Shown: one piece after another, positions 24,101 to 27,100 of the stretch
How positions within the stretch are numbered: position 1 is the stretch's first letter
Layout of the letters: each line of letters begins with the position of its first letter
Origin: Escherichia coli
GTDB lineage: Bacteria > Pseudomonadota > Gammaproteobacteria > Enterobacterales > Enterobacteriaceae
Strand: one strand, 5' to 3'
NCBI RefSeq assembly: GCF_003334305.1
Contig: NZ_QOWS01000025.1
DNA length: 64,000 bases
Made by a program: the position numbers

Positions 24101-27100
24101 AACTCATACACCAGATGAGCGGTTTCTTCAGACCGAGTTTATCCTGAACGATGCCGTAGAACATCATAAATAGAATGCTGGTAAACTGGTTGACCGAATA
24201 AAGTGTACCTAATTCCGTCCCTGTCAACCCTAGATGTCCTTTCAGCCAAATAGCGTATAACGACCACCACAGCGACCAGGAAATAAAAAAGAGAAATGAG
24301 TAACTGGATGCAAAACGATAGTACGCATTTCTGAATGGAATATTCAGTGCCATAATTACCTGCCTGTCGTTAAAAAATTCACGTCCTATTTAGAGATAAG
24401 AGCGACTTCGCCGTTTACTTCTCACTATTCCAGTTCTTGTCGACATGGCAGCGCTGTCATTGCCCCTTTCGCCGTTACTGCAAGCGCTCCGCAACGTTGA
24501 GCGAGATCGATAATTCGTCGCATTTCTCTCTCATCTGTAGATAATCCCGTAGAGGACAGACCTGTGAGTAACCCGGCAACGAACGCATCTCCCGCCCCCG
24601 TGCTATCGACACAATTCACAGACATTCCAGCAAAATGGTGAACTTGTCCTCGATAACAGACCACCACACCTTCTGCACCTTTAGTCACCAACAGCATGGC
24701 GATCTCATACTCTTTTGCCAGGGCGCATATATCCCGATCGTTCTGTGTTTTTCCACTGATAAGTCGCCATTCTTCTTCCGAGAGCTTGACGACATCCGCC
24801 AGTTGTAGCGCCTGCCGCAAACACAAGCGGAGCAAATGCTCGTCTTGCCATAGATCTTCACGAATATTAGGATCGAAGCTGACAAAACCTCCGGCATGCC
24901 GGATCGCCGTCATCGCAGTAAATGCGCTGGTACGCGAAGGCTCGGCAGACAACGCAATTGAACAGAGATGTAACCATTCGCCATGTCGCCAGCAGGGCAA
25001 GTCTGTCGTCTCTAAAAAAAGATCGGCACTGGGGCGGACCATAAACGTAAATGAACGTTCCCCTTGATCGTTCAGATCGACAAGCACCGTGGATGTCCGG
25101 TGCCATTCATCTTGCTTCAGATACGTGATATCGACTCCCTCAGTTAGCAGCGTTCTTTGCATTAACGCACCAAAAGGATCATCCCCCACCCGACCTATAA
25201 ACCCACTTGTTCCGCCTAATCTGGCGATTCCCACCGCAACGTTAGCTGGCGCGCCGCCAGGACAAGGCAGTAGCCGCCCGTCTGATTCTGGCAAGAGATC
25301 TACGACCGCATCCCCTAAAACCCATACTTTGGCTGACATTTTTTTCCCTTAAATTCATCTGAGTTACGCATAGTGATAAACCTCTTTTTCGCAAAAATCG
25401 TCATGGATTTACTAAAACATGCATATTCGATCACAAAACGTCATAGTTAACGTTAACATTTGTGATATTCATCGCATTTATGAAAGTAAGGGACTTTATT
25501 TTTATAAAAGTTAACGTTAACAATTCACCAAATTTGCTTAACCAGGATGATTAAAATGACGCAATCTCGATTGCATGCGACGCAAAACGCCCTAGCAAAA
25601 CTTCATGAGCACCGGGGTAACACTTTCTATCCCCATTTTCACCTCGCGCCTCCTGCCGGGTGGATGAACGATCCAAACGGCCTGATCTGGTTTAACGATC
25701 GTTATCACGCGTTTTATCAACATCACCCGATGAGCGAACACTGGGGGCCAATGCACTGGGGACATGCCACCAGCGACGATATGATCCACTGGCAGCATGA
25801 GCCTATTGCGCTAGCGCCAGGAGACGATAATGACAAAGACGGGTGTTTTTCAGGTAGTGCTGTCGATGACAATGGTGTCCTCTCACTTATCTACACCGGA
25901 CACGTCTGGCTCGATGGTGCAGGTAATGACGATGCAATTCGCGAAGTACAATGTCTGGCTACCAGTCGGGATGGTATTCATTTCGAGAAACAGGGTGTGA
26001 TCCTCACTCCACCAGAAGGAATCATGCACTTCCGCGATCCTAAAGTGTGGCGTGAAGCCGACACATGGTGGATGGTAGTCGGGGCGAAAGATCCAGGCAA
26101 CACGGGGCAGATCCTGCTTTATCGCGGCAGTTCATTGCGTGAATGGACCTTCGATCGCGTACTGGCCCACGCTGATGCGGGTGAAAGCTATATGTGGGAA
26201 TGTCCGGACTTTTTCAGCCTTGGCGATCAGCATTATCTGATGTTTTCCCCGCAGGGAATGAATGCCGAGGGATACAGTTACCGAAATCGCTTTCAAAGTG
26301 GCGTAATACCCGGAATGTGGTCGCCAGGACGACTTTTTGCACAATCCGGGCATTTTACTGAACTTGATAACGGGCATGACTTTTATGCACCACAAAGCTT
26401 TTTAGCGAAGGATGGTCGGCGTATTGTTATCGGCTGGATGGATATGTGGGAATCGCCAATGCCCTCAAAACGTGAAGGATGGGCAGGCTGCATGACGCTG
26501 GCGCGCGAGCTATCAGAGAGCAATGGCAAACTTCTACAACGCCCGGTTCACGAAGCTGAGTCGTTACGCCAGCAGCATCAATCTGTCTCTCCCCGCACAA
26601 TCAGCAATAAATATGTTTTGCAGGAAAACGCGCAAGCAGTTGAGATTCAGTTGCAGTGGGCGCTGAAGAACAGTGATGCCGAACATTACGGATTACAGCT
26701 CGGCACTGGAATGCGGCTGTATATTGATAACCAATCTGAGCGACTTGTTTTGTGGCGGTATTACCCACACGAGAATTTAGACGGCTACCGTAGTATTCCC
26801 CTCCCGCAGCGTGACACGCTCGCCCTAAGGATATTTATCGATACATCATCCGTGGAAGTATTTATTAACGACGGGGAAGCGGTGATGAGTAGTCGAATCT
26901 ATCCGCAGCCAGAAGAACGGGAACTGTCGCTTTATGCCTCCCACGGAGTGGCTGTGCTGCAACATGGAGCACTCTGGCTACTGGGTTAACATAATATCAG
27001 GTGGAACAACGGATCAACAGCGGGCAAGGGATCCGCGTCACTCTTCCCCCTTCACGACCTTCAATAATATGCAATGCAGCTTCCCGCCCGATAATGTCAT

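Follow-up and report, generated by a model that had tools for sequence, protein, structure and literature searches.

Twin palindromic putative CscR operators and adjoining predicted CRP sites between the divergent cscK and cscA genes of Escherichia coli

Background

Two copies of a 12-bp inverted repeat were described in the csc control region by Jahreis et al. (2002) as putative operators of CscR, according to the account of that study in a later paper (PMC11251922). In the same account, a mutation in one of the repeats raised cscA expression, and a Crp site adjoins (PMC11251922). The -35 and -10 elements lie between the two csc operators, of which the downstream one is over the transcription start, and the Crp site is next to the cscA -35 (PMC11251922). 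Conservation of the operators has been shown in five species (PMC11251922, Front Microbiol 2024). Steen et al. (2014) refer to cscA and cscKB operator sites and to two cAMP-Crp sites in a bidirectional promoter (PMC3938415). The main text of the E. coli W genome paper, which is cited elsewhere for the two Crp sites, carries no detail on them.

The genetics of the region point to a repressor and to dependence on cAMP. A spontaneous de-repressing mutation of the 'cscKB operator' has arisen recurrently and permits growth on low sucrose, and a cyaA::Tn5 mutant cannot use sucrose (PMC3938415). Loss of cscR and mutation of the operator give the same de-repressed phenotype (PMC11251922, PMC3938415). 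CscR was included among the LacI-family sucrose regulators by Ravcheev et al. (2014) in a comparative-genomics reconstruction of regulons and motifs (PMC4052901). No report of direct binding of CscR to DNA was found among the accounts consulted, which relate Jahreis 2002 at second hand, and the published wording is 'putative' operators.

A similar arrangement is present at the scrY promoter of pUR400 and Klebsiella, which has two ScrR operators (Cowan 1991; Jahreis and Lengeler 1993, both as related in PMC11251922). As summarized there, scrY and csc both have a sucrose-specific LacI-family repressor and two inverted-repeat operators that bracket the -35 and -10 elements, the downstream operator being over the transcription start and a CRP site being upstream (PMC11251922). 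The scr system differs from csc in that ScrR belongs to the FruR/ScrR branch, the operator repeats are 14 bp and of a different sequence, and the pathway is PTS-dependent. In the gal system, the GalR operator OE is at -60.5 and the CRP site is at -41.5, while the second operator, OI, is inside galE at +53.5, 113 bp away. The OI operator acts by HU-assisted looping. The cassettes controlled by CytR have the operator between two CRP sites that are 14 to 31 bp apart, as at deoP2, udp, nupG, and tsx (PMC3454398). CytR represses by anti-activation, and its sites are pairs of octamers, weak and variably spaced, at which binding requires CRP.

Gene context

The window, which is the whole 64-kb stretch of E. 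coli DNA that was analysed, contains the csc genes. Gene coordinates are based on NCBIfam profiles and on the RefSeq annotation of a 100% identical E. coli genome, and are as follows.

23106-24353, minus strand: cscB, sucrose:H+ symporter of the LacY family (NCBIfam TIGR00882, oligosaccharide MFS transporter, 594 bits; RefSeq CDS)
24425-25339, minus strand: cscK, fructokinase, first gene of the cscKB operon (NF006957, 507.7 bits against a cut-off of 450; RefSeq CDS)
25556-26989, plus strand: cscA, invertase/sucrose hydrolase (NCBIfam TIGR01322, scrB_fam, 479.7 bits; RefSeq CDS)
26997-27992, minus strand: cscR, LacI-family repressor of 331 aa, convergent with cscA (NCBIfam matches; RefSeq CDS)
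28471-29799, plus strand: dsdA, D-serine ammonia-lyase (NCBIfam)

The initial annotation, made from the sequence alone, had placed two palindromes between divergently transcribed cscK and cscA. This gene order was borne out, with cscK on the minus strand and cscA on the plus strand, and the interval assigned to the element, 25340-25555, proved to be exactly the 216 bp intergenic region between the two genes by both NCBIfam and RefSeq annotation. The cscA start used by RefSeq, at 25556, is the second in-frame ATG. A search of the region against Rfam returned a chance-level match only (E = 0.14, 13.8 bits against a gathering score of 60).

The two palindromes

Two identical palindromes are present in the intergenic region. 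They are referred to here as O1 and O2.

25446-25457, no strand assigned: O1, the distal putative CscR operator, called the 'cscKB operator' in the literature; perfect palindrome GTTAACGTTAAC
25510-25521, no strand assigned: O2, the proximal putative CscR operator, called the 'cscA operator'; palindrome identical to O1

A pattern search of the 64-kb window found exact copies of GTTAACGTTAAC at these two positions and at no others. The sequence is its own reverse complement, with halves GTTAAC and GTTAAC that meet at a central CG step, and the two copies are 64 bp apart, whether measured start-to-start or centre-to-centre. The coordinates, self-complementarity, and spacing originally given for the twin palindromes all agree with the sequence and with the pattern search. 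The likeness between O1 and O2 stretches to 17 nt, AGTTAACGTTAACA[T/A]TT, of which 16 are identical. The cscA start codon lies 34 bp beyond the 3' end of O2. Operators of the LacI/GalR type are palindromes of about 12 to 20 bp with a central CG step, and GTTAACGTTAAC has this form.

The element is the same as the csc control region of E. coli EC3132 and W, with no difference in the element itself, and its recognition here is therefore a rediscovery rather than a new finding. The palindromes were already described as putative CscR operators in 2002, and the rediscovery is correct.

A repeat of this kind could in principle be without function, two HpaI-type palindromes having been generated by local duplication. 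The region between the genes is AT-rich, and the near identity of the 17 nt stretches resembles what a duplication would leave. Against this, exact GTTAACGTTAAC never occurred even once in 100 dinucleotide-preserving shuffles of the window (mean 0.00), and published mutations in the sites have a phenotype. Variation within E. coli adds little. Seven E. coli variants have 9 polymorphic columns, all of them outside the palindromes, which at 99% identity is not significant (estimated P ~0.35). This variation is too low to be informative and so distant orthologues were used.

Conservation across species

Phylogenetic footprinting was done on 80 loci, one per species, that encode CscR relatives of 52-96% identity and that together make up 1.12 Mb. 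A total of 90 exact copies of GTTAACGTTAAC were found in these loci, against 0.08 expected, along with 65 copies with one mismatch. The O1 sequence is unchanged in the 7 E. coli variants, Citrobacter, and Pluralibacter. The positions of the palindromes are conserved while the DNA that flanks them is saturated with change. By these conservation data the chance explanation is effectively refuted, and we give it almost no probability.

The operator pair is present in 59 of the 80 loci, where O1 is either exact or has one mismatch. The spacing of the pair is 64 bp in 34 loci, 63 bp in 12, 62 bp in 3, 57 bp in 7 (Gilliamella), and 68-69 bp in 3 (Proteus); O2 is thus 62-64 bp from O1 in 49 loci. At least 3 of the loci without a pair end before the promoter. 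A single operator is present in Providencia and Moellerella. These single operators and the other spacings, in Gilliamella and Proteus, indicate that the twin arrangement is not a requirement. Across species, the consensus reaches weakly beyond the palindrome, to AT-GTTAACGTTAAC-AT.

Whatever the order of the genes, the pair is always ahead of the catabolic gene, which is either cscA, as in the E. coli type, or the cscB'-cscA operon, and of the two operators it is always O2 that faces this gene or operon. Beyond O1 the neighbouring gene differs between species: it can be cscK, cscB, or cscR, and in Yersinia, Serratia, Pectobacterium, and Rahnella there is none. In about 25 species it is cscR itself that lies beyond O1, which implies autoregulation. 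The motif thus co-occurs with orthologues of the regulator and is found upstream of the regulated genes, as is expected of its operator.

Another regulator could instead occupy the palindromes, with CscR acting elsewhere. The most obvious example is Cra (FruR), which has the consensus TGAAACGTTTCA. The central AACGTT of the palindrome is shared with the centre of this consensus, and fructose is a product of sucrose cleavage. The outer GTT...AAC of the palindrome, which is invariant across genera, is however unlike the TGA...TCA of Cra. The motif also accompanies CscR homologues, and it is missing where the homologue has no csc neighbours: the three such loci (L034, L040, and L082) have no GTTAACGTTAAC site. 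In addition, the published operator mutation and the loss of cscR share the de-repressed phenotype. Binding by a regulator other than CscR is therefore considered highly improbable.

CRP sites

Two predicted CRP sites are present in the intergenic region, one on each side of O1.

25461-25476, no strand assigned: CRP site 1 (predicted), TGTGATATTCATCGCA, TGTGA-N6-TCGCA, 9 of 10 core positions
25420-25435, no strand assigned: CRP site 2 (predicted, weaker), TGCATATTCGATCACA, TGCAT-N6-TCACA, 7 of 10 core positions

The scan for CRP sites that had been suggested with a weight matrix was run as a count of core matches to TGTGA-N6-TCACA, so that the scores are not those of a full weight matrix. The initial annotation had noted a CRP-like 'half-site' immediately after the first palindrome. 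A site is indeed present at that location, although it is a complete match with both half-sites, at 9 of 10 core positions, rather than a half-site. Only 4 matches in the 64-kb window have at least 9 of the 10 core positions, CRP site 1 among them. The second CRP-like site, at 25420-25435, was absent from the earlier annotation.

CRP site 1 begins 3 bp past O1, with 17 bp between the centres of the two. CRP site 2 ends 10 bp before O1 and is 41 bp from CRP site 1, centre-to-centre. Across species, 49 of 60 regions have a CRP site 1 with 7 or more of the 10 core positions at one fixed offset from O1, and 48 of 60 have a CRP site 2 of at least this score at its own fixed offset. By comparison, 0.3% of random 16-mers reach this score. 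Positions conserved in orthologous promoters (48 to 49 of the 60 regions) are what would be expected of true CRP sites. The sequence of CRP site 1 is commonly TGTGATTAACATCA.. across species, and the right half of CRP site 2 is TCACA or TCTCA in 43 of the 60 regions.

The sites therefore form a four-site cassette: CRP site 2, 10 bp, O1, 3 bp, CRP site 1, 31-33 bp, and O2. The last gap is 33 bp in the E. coli window. The sequences of the 10-bp and 31-33-bp gaps are nearly free of information, which means that constraint acts on the spacings themselves. All variation in the distance between O1 and O2 falls within the interval from CRP site 1 to O2. CRP site 2 is kept whichever gene lies beyond O1, be it cscK, cscB, or cscR, and also in species without a divergent gene, and is therefore part of the cassette, not only of a divergent promoter.

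The additions made here to what has been published are modest. They are the breadth of conservation (about 60 species, Gilliamella among them, where the 2024 paper has five), the constant distance of each CRP site from O1, and the finding that CRP site 2 persists where a divergent gene is lacking.

Candidate promoters

A scan for consensus sigma-70 promoters found nothing at its threshold. Candidate elements were instead proposed for each direction.

25497-25508, plus strand: candidate cscA -10 elements, proposed from the sequence and from partial conservation of CTTTAT and AAAA before O2
25373-25382, minus strand: conserved block GGTTTATCAC, with the candidate cscKB -10 TATCAC (25378-25373)

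Three models of the cscA promoter can be drawn. The published one would have the -35 ATGAAA at 25480-25485 and, after 17 bp, the -10 TATAAA at 25503-25508, with transcription starting at about 25515 and CRP site 1 at about -46.5. A class II promoter would use TATTTT at 25497-25502 as its -10, with a start at about 25510 and CRP site 1 at -41.5. A class I promoter would have its -10 at TAACAA, 25518-25523, a start at about 25530, and CRP site 1 at -61.5. The canonical CRP distances of -41.5 and -61.5 thus each go with a weak candidate -10. In all three proposed models O2 overlaps the core promoter or the transcription start, which makes direct occlusion at cscA a robust expectation.

For cscKB, the surrounding DNA has diverged between E. 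coli, Citrobacter amalonaticus, and Pluralibacter gergoviae, but all three keep the sequence TGATAAACC (25374-25382) unchanged. Its minus-strand sequence is GGTTTATCA. Taking TATCAC as the proposed cscKB -10 would put CRP site 2 at -61.5. O1 is upstream of both of the proposed promoters, and no overlap of O1 with any plausible cscKB core promoter was found. A leftward cscKB promoter under O1, with CRP site 1 at either -41.5 or -61.5, was also considered. It was rejected, as neither a credible -10 nor a credible -35 was found and the transcription start would coincide with CRP site 2. The location of O1, upstream of both promoters and between the CRP sites, would indicate that it acts on activation and not on the access of polymerase.

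The CscR protein

The regulator encoded in the locus, CscR, is a LacI-family protein with an N-terminal helix-turn-helix. Its LacI-family NCBIfam matches span the helix-turn-helix region and are all under their equivalog cut-offs. A close homologue in the PDB is 6NDI (E = 2e-114), which is labelled only 'Transcriptional regulator'; PurR, CcpA, and RbsR are also among the PDB relatives. Residues V13, S14, M16, T17, V18, S19, and R20 of the recognition helix are invariant in an alignment of 18 CscR homologues. The helix is thus unchanged among homologues that have the operator motif in common. Two orthologous assignments were rejected. As a CytR orthologue, CscR scores 136.6 bits against a cut-off of 436, similar to its scores with other LacI-family models, and as an ScrR orthologue it scores 43.9 bits against the TIGR02417 cut-off of 389.55.

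The LacI subfamily profile NF007075 aligns to CscR at positions 6-328 of 358 only, and the C-terminal tetramerisation helix of the LacI type has no counterpart in the 331 aa protein. This bears on the possibility of a DNA loop, as in lac and gal, in which CscR dimers on O1 and O2 would touch and so enclose the cscA promoter and CRP site 1. The spacing of the operators is consistent with such a loop in 49 of the 59 paired loci, where 62-64 bp (5.9-6.1 turns) puts both operators on the same face of the helix even though the intervening sequence has diverged. In the ten other paired loci the operators are out of phase, at 57 or 68-69 bp, and there are lineages with a single operator. The stretch from CRP site 1 to O2 holds all of the variation in spacing, as would fit operators whose placement follows promoter elements and not one another. 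A loop of 64 bp would also be very tight. Looping between O1 and O2 is thus regarded as unlikely and as a weaker alternative to anti-activation at O1.

Proposed mechanism

The palindromes are very probably CscR operators in a compact module that is common to the divergent cscA and cscKB promoters. This reading is based on the published genetics, the presence of cscR in the locus, and the phylogenetic footprinting. The same evidence supports the original suggestion that these are LacI-family operators through which CscR represses cscA and cscKB, with CRP adjoining.

Without inducer, one CscR dimer would bind to each palindrome. At O2, bound CscR would block RNA polymerase directly at the cscA core promoter or start. 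At O1, bound CscR would most likely disturb activation by CRP at both promoters: it might exclude or trap CRP, or block the C-terminal domain of the alpha subunit of RNA polymerase, in a manner comparable to GalR at gal OE or to CytR between a pair of CRPs. Such interference at O1 seems to be the only evident route to repression of cscKB. Activation by cAMP-CRP would take place once glucose is absent.

In a more tentative and rather doubtful extension of this scheme, the conserved unit would be the whole CRP-O1-CRP-promoter-O2 cassette, with its 10-bp and 3-bp spacings invariant from E. coli to Gilliamella, and CscR at O1 would be an anti-activator and the sole means by which cscKB is repressed. 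If anti-activation were true, CscR would parallel CytR, or GalR at OE, as a regulator that binds a palindrome with high affinity.

The csc and gal systems are alike in their second, downstream operator and in a LacI-family repressor that lacks a tetramerisation tail and binds, by prediction for CscR, as a dimer. In both, an operator is directly upstream of a CRP site, at a centre-to-centre distance of 19 bp in gal and 17 bp for csc O1. The csc region is unlike gal in that O2 is 64 bp away and on the core promoter, and in that a second CRP site is present beyond O1.

Like the CytR cassettes, the csc region has its operator sandwiched by CRP sites at a conserved distance, with cores 25 bp apart, which is within the CytR range. 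The operator itself is different. The sites of CytR are weak, degenerate, and CRP-dependent, whereas that of CscR is an invariant and perfect 12-bp palindrome of high information content, typical of autonomous binding. We know of no contact between CscR and CRP.

Relevance and distribution

The csc regulon is the basis for engineering industrial E. coli that use sucrose, and such strains are routinely de-repressed by deletion of cscR or by mutation of the operator. The exact layout of the operators and CRP sites is therefore of practical use, and it has been available since 2002. A cassette with fixed spacing across many Enterobacterales and Orbales makes it possible to test whether O1 acts by anti-activation or by occlusion.

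Among 5426 complete E. coli genomes, 2664 carry the region, as matched by a 421-bp query at 90-100% identity, and the window matches E. coli genomes at 97-100% identity. Around the locus, the RefSeq annotation of the 100% identical genome has yfdC, a tRNA-Arg gene (argW), and a dsdX remnant.

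CRP-like sites flanking the distal operator

A second CRP-like site was identified between cscK and cscA, on the far side of the distal one of the two 12-bp palindromes that are putative CscR operators.

25420-25435: CRP-like site 2, ending precisely 10 bp ahead of the distal operator

This places the distal operator between two CRP sites, the centres of which are 41 bp apart. CRP-like site 2 is retained in 48 of the 60 related regions that were anchored on the distal operator, and is still conserved in those without a divergently transcribed gene (Yersinia, Serratia, Pectobacterium, and Rahnella). 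Within the cscK leader, the block TGATAAACC (25374-25382) is unchanged from E. coli to Pluralibacter gergoviae and the DNA around it has diverged. Read on the minus strand, it is GGTTTATCA, a candidate -10 element for the cscKB promoter.

Operator arrangement in other lineages

Among loci encoding CscR homologues in other species, those of Providencia and Moellerella (L025, L028-L030, L032, L035, and L041) have one exact operator between cscA and cscK; these seven loci lack a second copy of the operator, and no strong CRP site occupies the usual offsets in them. This is a different promoter design associated with the same regulator family. The Gilliamella loci (L050-L070) have a pair of operators upstream of cscA at a spacing of 57 bp, and their cscB-cscR intergenic region contains the additional operator near-copies TTTAACGTTAAC and GTTAATGTTAAC, just 14 bp apart.

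L052, 6830 and 6844: example of the Gilliamella near-copies, between cscB and cscR

The cscR homologue is divergent from the operator cassette in approximately 25 species (L048-L087, including Enterobacter, Klebsiella oxytoca, Citrobacter braakii, Citrobacter werkmanii, Kosakonia, Erwinia, and Buttiauxella, amongst others), which implies autoregulation in these species. The E. coli cscR gene converges with cscA, and the stretch upstream of it (27993-28470) lacks any operator site with 2 or fewer mismatches.

CscR itself (26997-27992, minus strand) has a close full-length homologue in PDB 6NDI (E = 2e-114), which is labelled there only as 'Transcriptional regulator'. The repressor family thus has a structure without a functional name.

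Other features of the csc region

The coordinates of two flanking features were converted from the RefSeq annotation of a 100% identical E. coli genome.

22590-22664: tRNA-Arg gene (argW), just past cscB
~28235-28453: truncated dsdX pseudogene, between cscR and dsdA

These flanks match the published account of csc insertion at the argW/dsd hotspot.

Two further repeats in the intergenic region may both be chance occurrences: a 14-nt inverted repeat (86% complementary), with arms TCCCTTAAATTCAT in the cscK ribosome-binding region (25345-25358) and ATGAAAGTAAGGGA in the cscA promoter (25480-25493), and a 13-nt direct repeat, CAAAAATCGTCAT / CACAAAACGTCAT, with copies 40 bp apart (25392-25404 and 25432-25444).

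The cscA gene opens with two in-frame ATG codons (25547-25558), at 25547 and 25556, 9 nt apart. RefSeq takes the second as the start, and this second ATG is also the better fit for the AGGA at 25543-25546.
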